In this document: in pieces, positions 41,461 to 53,513 of the stretch
Layout: each line of letters begins with the position of its first letter
Position numbering within the stretch: position 1 is the stretch's first letter
From: an uncultured delta proteobacterium
GTDB lineage: Bacteria; Desulfobacterota; Binatia; Binatales; Binataceae
Length of the DNA: 64,000 nucleotides
Direction: 5' to 3'
NCBI GenBank assembly: GCA_963782535.1
Contig: CAWAKE010000009.1
Location: forward strand, 408,610 to 472,609
Made by a program: the position numbers and the translations under genes
Notes under the pieces: model-generated
Told to the model about the DNA's origin: nothing
Database searches by the model: none
What the model saw: the letters and a program-made list of their open reading frames with translations, nothing else

Positions 41461-41889
41461 CTACCGGCTGATTACCATCTGCGCCGAGCTCGACAATGGC
41501 AGCGTCATCTGCGACATCGGATAGAACGGATGAAAGTCGTAGGTCACCTGAACCTTTACTACGCTTCCCGGCTTATTATCCGGCGTCCAACTGGTCGAGA
41601 CGGTAAGACCGCTGGAGTTCAGGCCGTATGCTTCGTTGCGCACGTATTGTTGGATATCTGCCGAAGTAGCCGGCGACAAGCTCGCGTTGCCATGAACGAT
41701 TGCGTAGCGCACCGCGTCACGCGCCGAGTTGGATACGAAACTGTAGCTGTACACCGCCATTCCGAACGCGATGATACCGAACGTGATCATCAACATCGGC
41801 AGCGCGACGATTGCGAACTCGGTGAACGTTGCCCCCCGCAACCATCTTTGTCGGCTGTGCTCGGGACGCTTGATCCTTCGCGACCTCAT
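41461..41889 (-). CDS. tadE: TadE/TadG-like pseudopilin
   Basis: Prepilin cleavage motif RG|ATFTEFA, hydrophobic helix, SARDAVRYA. Confidence 0.85.
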   Translation of the reverse strand: MRSRRIKRPEHSRQRWLRGATFTEFAIVALPMLMITFGIIAFGMAVYSYSFVSNSARDAVRYAIVHGNASLSPATSADIQQYVRNEAYGLNSSGLTVSTSWTPDNKPGSVVKVQVTYDFHPFYPMSQMTLPLSSSAQMVISR

Positions 41890-42318
41890 CTATTGAACCT
41901 CCATGATCGCCGTCGACTGAAGTGGTATAGAAGACGGAATGCCTGGATACCGCAGGAATGTGCTGAAGGTCGCCCTGGCCGTGATCTGGACGAAAAGTTG
42001 AGGCGCCGAACATTGCTGCGGACTGCAAGCGACCTTCGATCCGTTACACATGCAGAAGTCCGTCGCAGTAGCGCTCATACCGCTTACCGTACTGCCGTCG
42101 TTGAGCGCCGCCTGCTGTATCTTTGGATAGTCGATCGCAGTGACATAGCTTTGAGCCCCATATTGAACCCCGGCTCGTGCCGCATGCGCAACCGTGACCG
42201 AGGCATAGAACACGCGCGCAAAATCTGCCACCACGACCAGCAACAATATGATCGCCGGGAGCGCCAGTGCCATCTCGAGCGTGCTCTGCCCTCTCGTCTT
42301 TCTCTTTCGCGATAGCAT
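41890..42318 (-). CDS. tadE: TadE-like pseudopilin
   Basis: RG|QSTLEMALALP, hydrophobic helix, AARAGVQYG. Confidence 0.88.
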   Translation of the reverse strand: MLSRKRKTRGQSTLEMALALPAIILLLVVVADFARVFYASVTVAHAARAGVQYGAQSYVTAIDYPKIQQAALNDGSTVSGMSATATDFCMCNGSKVACSPQQCSAPQLFVQITARATFSTFLRYPGIPSSIPLQSTAIMEVQ

Positions 42319-42330
42319 CCGCCCCTCCTC

Positions 42331-43620
42331 CTATTGCGCTAGCGCCGCATTCTTGATCAGCGACCCGTTAGACAAACAACTATAGTTGTTATTGACGTTC
42401 GTCGTGCCGCTGATAGTCAGTGTGTCGGAAACCAACAGCGTGTACTGATTTGCGCCCGAGGTCCCGTTATACGTAAGGTGGGTTGTCGGAAAGTACAACG
42501 CACCGGTGAACGACGAGTTCGAGCCGCCGTTGATTATGCTGTCCACTCCATTGGTCATCGCTCGATCCTGGAAAAACAGCATCCCCTCGATGCTTCCGCT
42601 CGAGGAGCTGCACGGCGCGCTCAAGTTTACGGTTGCGTTTCCGTTGACCGTCACGCCGCCATAGGCGTTCGGGCTGCCATTCGAGGTATTTCGGCCGGTC
42701 AGAAAGAAGGTGACGCTGGAACCATTCACTGTGCCGCCGTTTAAAGCGAGTCCACCGCCGTTGATGTAGTACAAGCCGGGATTGAACGTGACGGCGCCGC
42801 CGGTTACTTTTATCCCACCGCAATACAGCCCGGGATTCAGCGTTGTATTCGTGCTGATATTTAGCATGTGGTAGCTGTTGCAGGTCTGGATCGCCGGCTC
42901 GGGTTCCCATGCCAGCGGATCGCCGAATGCCGCGATCCCGGTCGAAGGCGGCGTGCTGCCGCCGCCATTGATATTGGTGCCGCCCACCACGCCAACCAGT
43001 GGCGCTTGGATTGTCCCGCCACCGCTGACCGTCAGCGCCGAACCACTCGTAGAGTTGTCGTATAGACCACAAGCGGAATTGAGGTTGCCGGTTCCGCCCA
43101 CCGTTACCGCCCCGGAATCGTCAGGATTCAGAGCATATATGCACGAGCCTCCCGAAACCGTCAGCCCAACCGCATTGGTCGTCACCGGGACCGTCGATTT
43201 GCCCAGTACCCGCATGAAAAACGTCGGCTGCACCTGCGATACCGTTACTTGAACCGCGTTCACATTCGTCGCGTAAGGCCCCGATACCGGTGGGTTGTAA
43301 ACTGCTACCGTCACCTGCTGTGAGCTATGCGTGTTGGATGCGCCACTGGTGAATCCGTTCTGCGCCGCCGCCGCTCGCGCCGCCGCCGCTATCGTGGCGC
43401 TGTCCGCGTTCTGGGCGACCTCGTCCGCTCCCGCCATCGCCGCCGCATCCGCCGCGTTTTGCATCAGCCGCCTGGTTGTCCACAGATTGCCGATATCGAC
43501 CGCCAACGCCGAAAACCCGAATAGCAGCGTCAGTGCAAGCGATACCAACACGAACACCTGGCCCCGTGACTTTGATGCAACTCTCTGTTTCATACCTGCA
43601 ACGTTGATGCGCCGATTCAT
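42331..43620 (-). CDS. tadG: TadG-like pilus assembly protein with Gly/Asn/Thr-rich C-terminal domain
   Basis: RG|QVFVLVSL, ALAVDIG, MQNAADAAAMAGA, then repeated PGLY/GG beta-rich segments. Confidence 0.82.
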   Translation of the reverse strand: MNRRINVAGMKQRVASKSRGQVFVLVSLALTLLFGFSALAVDIGNLWTTRRLMQNAADAAAMAGADEVAQNADSATIAAAARAAAAQNGFTSGASNTHSSQQVTVAVYNPPVSGPYATNVNAVQVTVSQVQPTFFMRVLGKSTVPVTTNAVGLTVSGGSCIYALNPDDSGAVTVGGTGNLNSACGLYDNSTSGSALTVSGGGTIQAPLVGVVGGTNINGGGSTPPSTGIAAFGDPLAWEPEPAIQTCNSYHMLNISTNTTLNPGLYCGGIKVTGGAVTFNPGLYYINGGGLALNGGTVNGSSVTFFLTGRNTSNGSPNAYGGVTVNGNATVNLSAPCSSSSGSIEGMLFFQDRAMTNGVDSIINGGSNSSFTGALYFPTTHLTYNGTSGANQYTLLVSDTLTISGTTNVNNNYSCLSNGSLIKNAALAQ

Positions 43621-49826: not shown

Positions 49827-50939
49827 TCACGCGCTGACGCGCGAGACCACCGCTGCCAGCCGGCTCCGCGACGCCCGCGCACCCAGCCCCGCCGCGTCCA
49901 GCCGCTCGAAATATTCGCGCACCGCCAAGCCGATAAATTTCCGCACCGCCGCGCGCCCCGCCTCAACCTGCGCCGCCTCGAGCCCGCCTCCCGCGATAAT
50001 GATCAGCGGCTCGGTCAGCTCGGGGCTGCCCAGCAGCGCCAGCATCACATGCTCTTCGCCGTCGAGCCATGCGTTCAGCGCCGCCCGTTGCTCCGGCTGA
50101 TGCGCCAGATGGTAGGCCAACGCGCCGCCTCCGTACGCCACGTGCCGCGCCGCATCCTGCATCGCATAACCCATGATCGCGCGATCGGCCCGCGTCGGCG
50201 CAAACGCCGCCAGGTACCGGTAAAGCGCCAGCAGGAACCCGCCCAGCGCCAGGTTGATCATGAGCGATCCGCGCGGAAACTCATCGGCCCACAGCCACTG
50301 CTTGAGTCCCTGTTCGGCCGCCACGTTGGCCCGGCCCAGCCCCGTGCCGCCGTACAGCGCGCGCTTGCGAAACGCTTCGAGCAGCCGCGCCCCGTCGAGC
50401 ATCTGCGCGCACATGAAACTCTTCTGCTCGATAAATTCTTGGTTGATCAGCGCCACCCAGCGCGACGGAAAATCCAGCGCCACCGCGGCGCACTCCTGCA
50501 TGAACGTATAGACCTGCGCGCACGCCGCTTCGAGTTTGGGCTCCAGCGGATTGGCGTCGAGATCCGTCCACGGTACGTCCAGCGCCGGCGCCCAGCGCCG
50601 CGCCTTGCTCTCTTCGTAAAGCTCGGCCACGTTGTCCGACCATACGTCCGACTTGCGGTTGACCAGGTAGCCCATGTCGGGCAGCTTGCCCCACTTCTCG
50701 CTGCCCCGCGCCGCCATCGATTGGCTGGTGCGCACCATCTCCGGGATTTTGCTGTAGCCGTAACTGCCGAGGTCGAGGTCCTGGTAAACCAGCCCGCGCC
50801 GCGCGTCGCTCGGGCGGCCCTTGACCTTTTCCGTGTCCGCGTCGATCCAGTGCAGCGACAGGTTGCCCTGCATCACCGCGTTCATCGCGTCGAGGACCGC
50901 CTGGTCCTCCGTGTAATCCTTGTCGGCGTAAAAGGCCAT
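49827..50939 (-). CDS. Ferritin-like protein with degenerate di-iron site (putative structural subunit)
   Basis: Full-length paralog of 50980-52128, with ligand positions reading QECA, DGARL, ALGG, DAARH. Confidence 0.8.
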   Translation of the reverse strand: MAFYADKDYTEDQAVLDAMNAVMQGNLSLHWIDADTEKVKGRPSDARRGLVYQDLDLGSYGYSKIPEMVRTSQSMAARGSEKWGKLPDMGYLVNRKSDVWSDNVAELYEESKARRWAPALDVPWTDLDANPLEPKLEAACAQVYTFMQECAAVALDFPSRWVALINQEFIEQKSFMCAQMLDGARLLEAFRKRALYGGTGLGRANVAAEQGLKQWLWADEFPRGSLMINLALGGFLLALYRYLAAFAPTRADRAIMGYAMQDAARHVAYGGGALAYHLAHQPEQRAALNAWLDGEEHVMLALLGSPELTEPLIIIAGGGLEAAQVEAGRAAVRKFIGLAVREYFERLDAAGLGARASRSRLAAVVSRVSA

Positions 50940-50979
50940 TTTTTAATTGCCGGTCGTCAGCTCGATTCGAGCCGGCGGC

Positions 50980-52128
50980 TTAGAACTTGATTCCGGCCTC
51001 CGCAGCTGCCGTCTTGCCCATCTCGAACATATTCCACAGCCGCGAGCGATCGCCGCTCTTGCGCTCGGGCATCCCGCACTTGTCCAGCCGCTCGAAATGT
51101 TCCCGCATCTGCTTGAGCTGAAAGGCGGTGGTGATCTTGACGCCCTCCGCGATATTTTCCTGCCTGAGGCCGCCGCCGGCGAGCACGATAAACGATTCCG
51201 TCAGCTCGGTCGCCGTGCCCGACGCAAACGAGATGTTCTCGGCTTCGTCCAGATGGCTGTGCAGGATCTCGCGCTTTTGCGGAAACTGATCCAGCACCCA
51301 CTTGAAATGCTGCATGCCATAGCCGACGTGCCGCGCTTCATCCTGCATCACCAGCCGGAAAATCCGCTTGTCAACGTCGGTCGGCGATAGAAATTCGCTG
51401 AAGCGAAACAGCGTCAGCACGTTGCCCTCGGCCACCAGATGCAGCGCCACCGACATTTCGCTGAAGGAGTCGGCGTCGCGCAGATGCTTGAGCGCCATCT
51501 CGTTCATCGGGCTCGCCTTCATCAGGCCATGGCCCGTCGTCAGCGCGCGCTTGCGAAAAACCTCGGCGTGGCGCGCTTCGTCCATCGCCTGCGCCGCGAT
51601 AAAGGCGCGCACCTCGATAAATTCCGGGTTGAGCCGCGGCAGCCACATCGCCGGCGTATCGGTCGCGATCATCTCGACTTCGGTCAGGAACGTCATCAAC
51701 TGCGAGAGCGCCTTGCCGGTCGCCTCGGGCAGCTCGACCCCCTCCAGCCGGTCCCACGGAATATCCGTGGTCGCATTCCATTGCCGCGTCACCGCCTCTT
51801 CATAATAGCCGTCGGTGTTATGCGCCCAGACCTCGCTCTTGCGCGAGACCCACGGCTGCGCATCCGGCAGGCCCTCGGGCAACTCGGCGCCGCGCGCTGC
51901 GAACGAGCGGTTGCGCCGCAATTTTTCCGGCAGATCGCTGTAGCCGTACCCGCCCAGATTGATATCGCGATAGATCAGTCCGCGACGCGGATTCTCGGCC
52001 TGTGGCTTCACCTTCTCGGTGTCTGCCGCCATCCACGACAAATCCAGTTCGCCGGTGCGAATCGTGTAAAGCCACTTGTCGATGAAATCGCGATCCTCGA
52101 AGTAGTCTTTCGTTGCGAGATATCCCAT
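50980..52128 (-). CDS. Ferritin-like di-iron carboxylate protein (putative catalytic subunit)
   Basis: Complete ligand pattern LTEVE ... DEARH ... VAEG ... DEARH. Confidence 0.85.
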   Translation of the reverse strand: MGYLATKDYFEDRDFIDKWLYTIRTGELDLSWMAADTEKVKPQAENPRRGLIYRDINLGGYGYSDLPEKLRRNRSFAARGAELPEGLPDAQPWVSRKSEVWAHNTDGYYEEAVTRQWNATTDIPWDRLEGVELPEATGKALSQLMTFLTEVEMIATDTPAMWLPRLNPEFIEVRAFIAAQAMDEARHAEVFRKRALTTGHGLMKASPMNEMALKHLRDADSFSEMSVALHLVAEGNVLTLFRFSEFLSPTDVDKRIFRLVMQDEARHVGYGMQHFKWVLDQFPQKREILHSHLDEAENISFASGTATELTESFIVLAGGGLRQENIAEGVKITTAFQLKQMREHFERLDKCGMPERKSGDRSRLWNMFEMGKTAAAEAGIKF

Positions 52129-52144
52129 CGTGGCCTCCGCCCGG

Positions 52145-52582
52145 TCAGAAACTCACGTCAAGCTGGCTCGTCAGGTCGAAAAATTCCTGAATCGATTCCA
52201 TGAAACGATAGAGCTTGTCATGCCCCTCGGGCTCGGCGTAGCTCACCTTCAGCGCCTCACCGAAATGGGTCAGCGTGTTGATGTCATGATGGGTGTCGGC
52301 TTCGCCATTGCGCTTGATGTTGTCGATCATCTCGCGCCAGACCGCAGCGTCGCCCGCGATCGTAAAATCGACCGCCGCTGCGTCGATCTCGTCCACTTCG
52401 CGCACCCCAGCCAACTCAAACACCTCAAAACTAAGTATAAAGTTGCGTAGCTGGTTACTGTCGGCGATAGTGACGCCAAACGTGGTATCGATAAAGCCCA
52501 AGCGACGAAAACGCGCCTCCTCGGCTGCCATTCGCTCGCCAAGCTTTTCGAAATACTCCGTAGAGGGAAATTTTAGACCCAT
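52145..52582 (-). CDS. Small hypothetical protein, possible SCP2 (sterol-carrier)-like fold
   Basis: MGLKFPSTEYF..., DFTIAGDAAVWREMI resembles SCP2-like proteins; first gene of the ferritin-like operon. Confidence 0.55.
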   Translation of the reverse strand: MGLKFPSTEYFEKLGERMAAEEARFRRLGFIDTTFGVTIADSNQLRNFILSFEVFELAGVREVDEIDAAAVDFTIAGDAAVWREMIDNIKRNGEADTHHDINTLTHFGEALKVSYAEPEGHDKLYRFMESIQEFFDLTSQLDVSF

Positions 52583-52835
52583 AAAATCCCGGCCGCCCAA
52601 CCGGTCTTGCGTGGCGCTTGCTCCAACCGCGTCTGACTATCATCATCGCGGGTCATCTTCGGTTGGTCAAGGATGATTTCGGTCGGCAATCCCGTCCACG
52701 AAAGGGCTCGACGATCGCCCGATCGCTCGCGCCTATCGACGAAAAGGCCGCAAGTGATGCCGTCCTCAATTCGCTCGCCGCGTGCCATCGGTCCGGCGCT
52801 CCGACCGATGCGCTCATGAATCGGTCACGCTCGCT

Positions 52836-53513
52836 TCATTCTGCCTGCGCGCTTCTCGCGGGCGATTCAATTGCGTGAAAGTCGTCGGGTGTCGATTTTG
52901 GTCGGGGGTGGGCGCCGGCTGGGGGAATGGAATGGAGGAGGGCGAGAGCGAGGTCGGTATAGATATCGAGGAGCTGGTCGAGGGAGAGGCGGCCCTGGGG
53001 GCGGTACCAGCGGGTGACGGCGGTGAGCATCTGGAGGAGGGCGAAGGTGGCGATTTCGGCGTCGAGTACGCGGAAGGCGCCGGAGTTGACGCCGGCCTCG
53101 ACGATACTGCGGACCTGGTCGGTGTAGCGGCGCTGGAGTTTGGAGATGGCCTGGTAGTTTTTGGGGGTGAGGCTGCGCATCTCCATTTGCAGGACGGAGG
53201 CCTGTTTGCGATTGACGATATGGTAGCCGAGATGGAAGGCGACGAACTTGCGCAGGCGCTCGGCGGGAGCGGTGACGCCGGCGAGGGTGTGGTCGAGTTC
53301 AAGGGCGAGGGCCTCGGTGGTCTCCTCGCACAGCAAAAAGAGCAGCTGCTGTTTGCTGTCGATGTAGTTATAGAGCGAGCTTGCCTGGAGGCCGACCTTG
53401 CGCGCGAGCATGCGCAGGTTCATGGCGCCGTAGCCGTGTTCGGCGAGCAACTGGATGGCGGCGGTGCGCAGGTTGCGCAGGGTTTCGGCGCCGTTAGAGC
53501 CGGGTTTCCGCAT
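52836..53513 (-). CDS. TetR/AcrR family regulator (KstR2-like C-terminus)
   Basis: Start at ATG 53513: AAIQLLAEHGYGAMNLRMLARKVGLQASSLYNYIDSKQQLL ... RWYRPQGRLS. Confidence 0.9.
   Translation of the reverse strand: MRKPGSNGAETLRNLRTAAIQLLAEHGYGAMNLRMLARKVGLQASSLYNYIDSKQQLLFLLCEETTEALALELDHTLAGVTAPAERLRKFVAFHLGYHIVNRKQASVLQMEMRSLTPKNYQAISKLQRRYTDQVRSIVEAGVNSGAFRVLDAEIATFALLQMLTAVTRWYRPQGRLSLDQLLDIYTDLALALLHSIPPAGAHPRPKSTPDDFHAIESPARSAQAE

Follow-up and report, generated by a model that had tools for sequence, protein, structure and literature searches.

Di-metal carboxylate oxygenases catalyse C-H oxidations that rank among the hardest in biology, and few of their families have been characterized. 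In the bacterial multicomponent monooxygenases (BMM) and in the PaaAC enzymes, ligand-less partners of the catalytic subunits are the rule. Another relevant group is R2lox, whose function was called undetermined in 2022 in passages of one report (PMC9314684), according to which the protein co-purifies with C16/C18 hydroxy fatty acids that it does not convert. The same passages describe haloarchaeal R2lox genes that cluster with a ferredoxin and a sterol carrier protein and are linked to hexadecane use. A Val-Tyr ether cross-link of R2lox is described in excerpts of PMC6399176 and PMC9314684, and parts of PMC10867098 report GkR2loxI as a Mn/Fe alkane hydroxylase. Here we analyse a locus of three genes, designated S, A and b, in a stretch of 64,000 nucleotides (the window; positions 408,610 to 472,609 of contig CAWAKE010000009.1, assembly GCA_963782535.1) from an uncultured member of the Binataceae (class Binatia). 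A literature search on ferritin-like, SCP2 and di-iron proteins and on Binatia returned nothing on this protein family.

The trio is located on the minus strand of the window and consists of three co-oriented open reading frames (ORFs), with 16 bp between the stop of S and the start of A and 40 bp between the stop of A and the start of b. S (52145..52582, minus strand), the leading gene, encodes a protein of 145 amino acids with a predicted SCP2 fold. Its ORF as called spans 52145-52600, and the real start at 52582 was set from an alignment of homologues (120 listed, 144-164 amino acids, most of them 145-147). A (50980..52128, minus strand) encodes an R2-like ferritin-fold protein of 382 amino acids with a complete di-metal carboxylate site and two DEARH motifs. 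Its paralogue b (49827..50939, minus strand) encodes 370 amino acids and has lost five of the six metal ligands. A and b align from end to end with 150 of 364 positions identical (41%, E 1e-89). An earlier reading made from the DNA letters (the sequence-only reading) had described the tight packing of the genes with these gaps, the end-to-end alignment with the motifs ADTEKVK, RRGL.Y.D..LG.YGYS, AARG, FRKRAL, AGGGL and FERLD, the complete di-iron ligand set of A and the loss of five ligands in b. The coordinates agree with this description, every motif is visible in the alignment, and the six positions of b read A, G, L, G, A and H. We favour, with fair though far from firm confidence, the view that the products of the trio make up a heteromeric, soluble carboxylate oxygenase with a di-metal (Fe/Fe or Mn/Fe) site, which would represent a new family and act on a hydrophobic substrate.

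The metal ligands of A are E152, E184, H187, E234, E264 and H267, all of which are invariant in 51 of 51 ligand-complete relatives in our alignment, as are the two DEARH motifs and F191. The ligand on the first helix is E152 and not E150, because E150 varies among the relatives (E/Q/S/M/G/T) and E152 does not. F191, four residues after H187, occupies what we take to be the place of the radical tyrosine in the R2 subunit of class Ia ribonucleotide reductase (RNR), and a Phe at this place makes a radical-storage role for A unlikely. Class I RNR R2 was considered as an identity for A and rejected on this invariant residue and on the score for the Pfam RNR small chain (Ribonuc_red_sm, 19.5 bits against a cut-off of 33.6). 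In the library scan, no Pfam or NCBIfam cut-off was reached by A or b. The best Pfam match was DUF455 (22.8 bits against a cut-off of 34.3), and the NCBIfam R2lox model NF006200 scored 27.3 bits for A and 20.8 bits for b against a cut-off of 194. A search of the PDB with A as a single sequence gave no match better than E 0.1; the profile of the family matched the VlmB homologue 6d9f at E 2e-14 and R2lox at about 1e-9. The ESM Atlas returned only 'hypothetical' and 'ferritin-like' clusters for the A family.

The AlphaFold2 model of A, with a mean predicted local distance difference test (pLDDT) score of 92.7, shows an R2-like ferritin fold. Foldseek searches with this model returned VlmB (8wvr), its homologue 6d9f, NrdB and R2lox at E values of 5e-5 to 2e-4 and a query-normalized TM-score (TMq) of about 0.5. 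By VIA structural comparison, 6d9f, R2lox (4hr0), MMOH alpha and beta, a phenol hydroxylase chain, ToMO beta, proteins with aldehyde-deformylating oxygenase (ADO) activity and RNR R2 were tied at Z 19-22. A second tier (Z 14.7-15.7) comprised PaaAC, BoxB, DesA2, stearoyl-ACP desaturase and AurF, and ferritins and Dps followed at approximately Z 11. Both A and b carry a conserved N-terminal extension of about 100 residues. Judged by these matches, A is a remote relative of VlmB-like proteins and of R2lox and falls into no curated family. The claim that the proteins are not recognizable as members of a known family is thereby sharpened.

The ligand-less copy is well maintained. The 120 listed orthologues of b are 67-97% identical and full length (368-394 amino acids), and the full ligand set occurs in 0 of the 121 listed b-type sequences, window b included. 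Glu at position 152 is kept in 13 and His at position 267 in 46 of the 121; the ligands at positions 184 (Glu), 187 (His), 234 (Glu) and 264 (Glu) are kept in 0 of 121 each. The replacements at the lost positions vary freely, as expected without metal binding. Pairwise ratios of non-synonymous to synonymous substitution rates (dN/dS) between the window and four related loci were 0.12-0.24 for b, 0.02-0.15 for A and 0.05-0.19 for S, figures that are rough because dS was near or above 1 for many pairs. By these measures b is kept under purifying selection and is not decaying, in line with the sequence-only reading, which had called it an intact, full-length degenerate copy and had named ligand loss among orthologues and dN/dS as checks. 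A b-type orthologue in another genome of the class (G003:C31:639670-640761) contains an in-frame TGA and may be a pseudogene or reflect a sequencing error.

Phylogenetic trees were calculated from 112 sequences by a quick method and from 64 of these, picked by hand, by a careful one (LG+C20+F+G4 with posterior mean site frequencies), after sequences shorter than 300 or longer than 470 amino acids had been dropped; the topologies agree. The Binatia-type b clade is the sister of its own A clade (support 96/99), and the b clade of Chloroflexota and Gammaproteobacteria is likewise the sister of its own A clade (support 90/61). No tree among 200 bootstrap replicates united all b sequences, and the approximately unbiased (AU) test rejected a single b clade (log-likelihood difference 44.4, p 0.003). 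Long-branch attraction would tend to pull the two b clades together, not apart. Position 187 is Leu in 116 of the 121 Binatia-type b sequences; the other b type often keeps His and has Lys or Arg at position 264. Ligand-less copies thus appear to have arisen at least twice inside the family, a pattern that gene conversion between the tandem copies could mimic. This double origin and the ferredoxin linkage described below are additions to the sequence-only reading.

The small partner S showed no Pfam or NCBIfam match at E <= 0.01 and no sequence match in the PDB, and a profile of S found no PDB sequence below E 0.69. With its AlphaFold2 model (pLDDT 88.2), Foldseek returned 1wfr (TMq 0.71) and 2cx7 (TMq 0.68). 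The VIA comparison placed 2cx7_B first (Z 13.9, rmsd 2.2 Å over 123 of 130 residues); the next nine chains, UbiJ-SCP2 (6h6n, Z 8.2) among them, are likewise of SCP2 type and score Z 7.8-9.5. The modelled structure of S is therefore an SCP2 fold, visible to structure searches only, and the SCP2-like partner proposed from the sequence is borne out. MmoB/DmpM- or PaaB-type chains were not found among the best 50 of the 59 VIA chains with Z >= 2, an absence that is no proof. S is highly conserved, with a mean column identity of 69%.

Relatives of A are numerous. In a collection clustered at 90% identity, 1997 of 7967 candidates matched at E <= 0.001, and those with names are labelled 'hypothetical protein' or 'ferritin-like domain-containing protein' only. 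At 50% identity the family has 805 clusters, 97 of them with E <= 1e-30. In an alignment of 50 full-length sequences (A and b of the window, the second A of this genome and 47 cluster representatives), the full ligand set was present in 29 and absent in 21, so that ligand-less forms make up a large share of the family. Among the genomes of the window's class, 44 of 101 have a match at E <= 1e-40 and 27, including this one, possess a b-type orthologue (listed identities >= 46%); in 24 of the 26 others with b, the b-type gene is at most 400 bp away from an A-type gene. These tallies include one unpublished genome, G083, with an A-type match only. Such a patchy distribution, as far as the genomes surveyed indicate, is that of an accessory function.

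Gene order was compared in 82 sources. Besides the window and a second locus from this genome, these comprised the best 80 loci out of 569 confirmed; ORFs were called and classed with hidden Markov models (HMMs) of the families. These 80 form a biased sample of species-representative genomes, all metagenome-assembled, and belong to Binatia, Actinomycetota (Acidimicrobiia and a metagenome-assembled Mycobacterium), Chloroflexota (Dehalococcoidia, Tepidiformaceae) and Gammaproteobacteria. A was combined with S in 19 sources, with S and a ferredoxin in 11, with b in 18 and with both b and S in 17 (S-A-b as in the window, or A-b-S-S); it stood alone in 16, and one locus (L011) was truncated. S therewith adjoins A in 47 and b adjoins A in 35 of the 82 sources, and b lies next to A in every mapped locus that has b. 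These counts identify A as the constant part and b and S as optional partners. Of the conserved triad for which the sequence-only reading had asked, the recurrence of A/b/S synteny (17 of 82) stands; a fixed triad does not, since b and S each occur in only part of the family. Fusions of S with A or b were not found among 510 proteins.

This genome itself contains further members. On contig C1 (approximately 262.5-263.6 kb, locus L002), an A protein of 371 amino acids with full ligands and 44% identity to window A immediately precedes an S homologue with 32% identity to window S, after which come ORFs of 143 and 261 amino acids; b is missing from this locus. A third, very distant ferritin-like protein of 347 amino acids, which matches A at E 1.4e-5 and shares its six ligands, is encoded at approximately 360 kb on contig C7 (L004) and groups in the trees, as outgroup, with an extra A-type gene of locus L009.

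Of the 30 loci with A and S but no b, 11 also encode a 2[4Fe-4S] ferredoxin of approximately 138 amino acids, on the strand of A and at most 1.5 kb away from it. The gene maps place the ferredoxin gene downstream of A and S, in most cases as the one that follows them, and the loci concerned span three phyla (Actinomycetota, Binatota and Pseudomonadota). Judged from this linkage, the ferredoxin is a likely electron donor. The sequence-only reading had left the donor open and had noted that no reductase or ferredoxin is encoded locally. Its observation on the window agrees with our scan, and a ferredoxin is now proposed as donor from the related loci.

From these data we propose the following mechanism. 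A would be the catalytic subunit, whose four-helix core would bind two metal ions through E152, E184, H187, E234, E264 and H267. Reduced by an external donor, A would activate O2 for a two-electron oxidation of its bound substrate, be it a hydroxylation, a desaturation or a related reaction. The metal-free b, duplicated from A, would serve as a structural partner and probably takes the position in the dimer that a second A would otherwise hold. S may bind a poorly soluble aliphatic substrate or product, such as a long-chain hydrocarbon, a lipid or an acyl thioester, and hand it to or from A. Electrons would probably come from a ferredoxin, which in this genome would necessarily be encoded elsewhere.

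Several observations weigh against this proposal. It is synteny, and no other line of evidence, that suggests binding among A, b and S. Complex prediction of A, b and S, with S scored, gave a median of 0.64 compared with 0.84 in a control with chain 1 replaced, and speaks neither way on binding. S is not obligatory for the family, as the 16 sources with A alone and the 18 with A and b but without S demonstrate. No reductase or ferredoxin domain was detected among the ORFs scanned at 30.6-64 kb of the window, to which all statements on window neighbours refer, and the ferredoxin of the other loci finds no more than a weak match in this genome (E 2e-4). VlmB, the closest solved relative by sequence, is an azoxy synthase and not a lipid enzyme. 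The flanks of S-A-b loci are not conserved, so that the context yields no clue to the substrate. Genes for acyl-CoA metabolism do occur near family members: short-chain dehydrogenase/reductase (SDR, 10 loci), acyl-CoA dehydrogenase closest to acryloyl-CoA reductase (6 loci), a propionate-CoA-ligase-like (PrpE-like) enzyme (6 loci), family III CoA-transferase (5 loci), thiolase-like protein (4 loci), enoyl-CoA hydratase (4 loci) and a thiamine diphosphate (ThDP) enzyme close to the acetolactate synthase model and more distantly to 2-hydroxyacyl-CoA lyase (4 loci). Each of these is present in at most 10 loci, the genes are common in these genomes, and the counts are raw and without background.

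The closeness to VlmB raises the question whether A instead serves secondary metabolism as a VlmB/AurF-like tailoring enzyme, an N-oxygenase or azoxy-type oxidase, with S and b as accessory scaffolds. The VlmB homologue and VlmB (6d9f/8wvr) provide the best PDB profile match (the E 2e-14 given above) and the top Foldseek and VIA matches, and some relatives weakly carry the Pfam AurF domain. We nevertheless consider such a role improbable. Genes for nonribosomal peptide synthetases (NRPS), polyketide synthases (PKS) or other biosynthetic enzymes are absent around the trio and the mapped related loci, the module is a conserved cassette of two to five genes in many soil and marine lineages, an SCP2 partner suggests a hydrophobic ligand, and the VIA scores of AurF and CmlI (Z 14.7 each) are well under the top tie. 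A and b might also be non-catalytic proteins that bind or sense fatty acids, with S as a lipid shuttle. This was long suspected for R2lox, in accordance with the unconverted hydroxy fatty acids and the 2022 view of its function in the passages cited above (PMC9314684), and the lack of a reductase gene at the trio locus would fit. The invariant six ligands and DEARH motifs and the ferredoxin in 11 loci fit redox turnover better, and GkR2loxI has since been reported, in parts of PMC10867098, to hydroxylate alkanes; we thus regard a purely binding or sensing function as unlikely.

Of all explanations weighed here, we give least credence to the idea that the module acts, in the manner of bacterioferritin or rubrerythrin, as a ferroxidase or peroxidase that serves metal homeostasis or the defence against oxidative stress. 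Weak phmmer matches connect A with bacterioferritins (E 0.1), and a gene for a DtxR/IdeR-type repressor is located beside A-b in five Tepidiformaceae-type loci. No DtxR gene is found near the trio among the window ORFs scanned, the large R2/BMM-type fold with its N-terminal extension of about 100 residues differs from that of the subunits of 24-mer ferritins (ferritins and Dps score about Z 11, the top tie Z 19-22), and neither an SCP2 partner nor a dead paralogue has a parallel in ferritins. A different objection concerns only the pairing of A with b: b could have a separate, non-redox role, for instance in binding S or a lipid, and merely be linked to A. It is strongly conserved without a metal site, 46 of the 82 sources lack it, and this genome has a second A-S pair without b. 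That b stands next to A wherever it was mapped and in 24 of 26 other class genomes, that both proteins keep equal length and the conserved N-terminal segment, and that ligand-less partners are the rule in BMM and PaaAC enzymes leads us to doubt strongly that A and b form no heteromer.

Expression and regulation of the trio were considered from the surrounding DNA and from public data. One promoter-like site was found 5' of S (52670-52642), no more than shuffled sequences yield, and the terminator scan 3' of b gave no convincing terminator. Four metatranscriptome runs (four study codes, two of the runs possibly being one data set deposited twice) contain short contigs of the trio or of a 90-97% identical relative, and two contigs span the S/A and A/b junctions. 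Contigs from RNA libraries are no proof of transcription, hence these are at most a weak hint that the trio is expressed. A TetR-family regulator of 225 amino acids (52836..53513, minus strand; TetR_N and TetR_C_24) is encoded in the same orientation 253 bp 5' of S. Among NCBIfam models this protein matches the fatty-acid regulator FadR best, but its 63.5 bits fall far short of the cut-off of 200. Of seven related S-A-b-type loci whose neighbours were scanned, only L008 has a TetR gene upstream, and three have a DsbA-like gene there. TetR is a possible local regulator of the trio, and its membership in the module is uncertain.

Farther from the trio lie genes for a divergent amidohydrolase, a DUF1329 protein and a glutathione transferase. 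Because of this amidohydrolase gene, AibH1H2 was considered as an analogue and rejected; the passages of PMC10401708 that we consulted relate AibH2 structurally to PtmU3 and make no mention of 'ferritin-like'. Just 3' of b, the segment 47648-49333 has a low GC content (0.518 compared with 0.58-0.64 nearby) and contains three co-oriented ORFs (182, 168 and 238 amino acids) without Pfam match; it may be a small foreign island. The segment 43987-45741 encodes a DUF4382 protein with a His/Gly-rich insert, followed by a Thr/Pro/Ser-rich protein of 218 amino acids without Pfam match, and three Tad/TadE pilus-assembly genes (41464-43620) adjoin this pair.

Variants of the module were observed in other lineages. 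The A-b-S-S form often ends with a gene for an FmdB-type zinc ribbon (5 loci). In L054, L058, L068, L074 and L077, from Dehalococcoidia and Gammaproteobacteria, a fixed cassette A-b-S(-S)-zinc ribbon (FmdB family, approximately 94 amino acids) is present, and where such cassettes have two S genes these are different paralogues. In all five Tepidiformaceae-type loci (L047, L066, L067, L070 and L075), the A-b pair adjoins genes for a DtxR/IdeR-type metal-dependent repressor and a response regulator with GGDEF and HD domains; the former neighbour hints at metal-dependent control in that lineage. Unusual domain combinations were limited to isolated cases that may be assembly artefacts: an FrhB/FdhB-like (F420/FeS) domain after a partial A in P0272, a lycopene-cyclase-like C-terminus in P0375 and an N-terminal TusA-like domain in P0263 and P0280 of a distant clade. 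A plasmid search gave two distant matches only (27% identity), from Xenorhabdus and Pantoea; the Xenorhabdus region contains genes for an acyl carrier protein, a condensation domain and a sterol desaturase family protein and has no bearing on the trio.

We regard the module as real and well conserved and as a new family-level variant of the multicomponent di-metal oxygenases. The A family is large and unnamed and occurs in lineages that dominate soils and sediments. Tentatively, it could represent an unrecognized class of soluble di-metal oxygenases in which an SCP2 subunit delivers or gates the substrate in place of effector proteins or membranes, and in which a dead partner was invented at least twice, a repeated route from a homodimer to an obligate heterodimer. 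Such enzymes might oxidize long-chain aliphatics (alkanes, lipids or acyl thioesters) in uncultured bacteria that are abundant in soil and sea, including Binatia, Acidimicrobiia, Dehalococcoidia and Gammaproteobacteria. The module is thus a candidate for a new route of hydrocarbon or lipid oxidation in uncultured bacteria, and it offers a natural experiment on the origin of dead subunits, here twice from one parent. Its SCP2 partner is a possible answer to the question of how R2lox-type enzymes are supplied with insoluble substrates. The defined sets of three genes or of A, S and ferredoxin are directly testable by heterologous expression.

Compared with known systems, S resembles the lipid carriers SCP2, UbiJ and UbiT in its predicted fold (Z 13.9 to 2cx7_B and 8.2 to 6h6n). 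UbiJ serves hydroxylases by holding their lipid substrate. In contrast to these carriers, S has no sequence match to any SCP2 model or chain, and its partner is ferritin-like and not a flavin or U32 enzyme. A resembles VlmB and its homologue 'Protein 60' (8wvr, 6d9f) in structure (best Foldseek E 4.8e-5; best VIA Z 22.1, rmsd 3.0 Å over 257 residues). Identity is only 17-18%, and the profile match covers only the four-helix core (model positions 151-302), indicating remote homology. Unlike the trio, VlmB was seen with neither SCP2 nor a dead paralogue; the trio for its part lacks a biosynthetic context.

With MMOH, ToMO, phenol hydroxylase and PaaA/PaaC, the trio shares a catalytic subunit and a ligand-less paralogue side by side and DEARH-type motifs. 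The model of A aligns to MMOH alpha/beta and ToMO beta at Z 19.6-21.3 over 283-296 residues, including the N-terminal part, as well as it does to R2lox (Z 21.6), and the analogy to such subunit pairs in the sequence-only reading was apt. To the PaaAC chain 3pvr_B it aligns at Z 15.7, under the top tie. The likeness to the hydroxylases of soluble di-iron monooxygenases (SDIMO) is one at superfamily level only (Z 19-21, tied with R2lox and RNR R2). A and b have no match at E <= 0.01 to Pfam Phenol_Hydrox (PF02332) or PaaA_PaaC (PF05138, which we take to be the PaaA/PaaC family). A is shorter than a BMM alpha subunit (approximately 380 compared with 500 amino acids). The small partner has an SCP2 fold, and no MmoB/DmpM effector or PaaB-like fold occurs in its matches. 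Unlike in BMM and PaaABCDE, the scanned window ORFs include no reductase, gamma subunit or PaaB/D/E-like ORF. The dead subunit, too, would have a different history, having apparently arisen within the A family, twice, and not been inherited from BMM beta.

The remaining comparison is with R2lox. A shares with it the R2-like ferritin fold (VIA Z 21.6, rmsd 3.4 Å over 256 residues; profile E of about 1e-9), the E/ExxH/E/ExxH six-ligand site and the Phe at the place of the RNR radical tyrosine (51 of 51). It differs in staying below the NF006200 cut-off, in its additional conserved N-terminal segment of about 100 residues and in the cross-link residues: in an HMM alignment to the GkR2loxI chain, V72 is replaced by A155 and Y162 by L229 (R2lox numbering taken from titles of mutant entries in the PDB). 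Position 155 is Ala in at least 90% of the 51 relatives. With both cross-link residues replaced, A is a remote relative of R2lox and not a member. A ligand-less R2lox partner did not turn up in the passages of PMC9314684 and PMC10867098. What the two groups have in common extends to their surroundings, as the A-S-ferredoxin loci share with the haloarchaeal R2lox clusters, as described in parts of PMC9314684, the association with an SCP2-type protein and a ferredoxin. These haloarchaeal clusters are the closest published analogue, and by this analogy the A-S-ferredoxin loci may embody the same idea in a more distant family.

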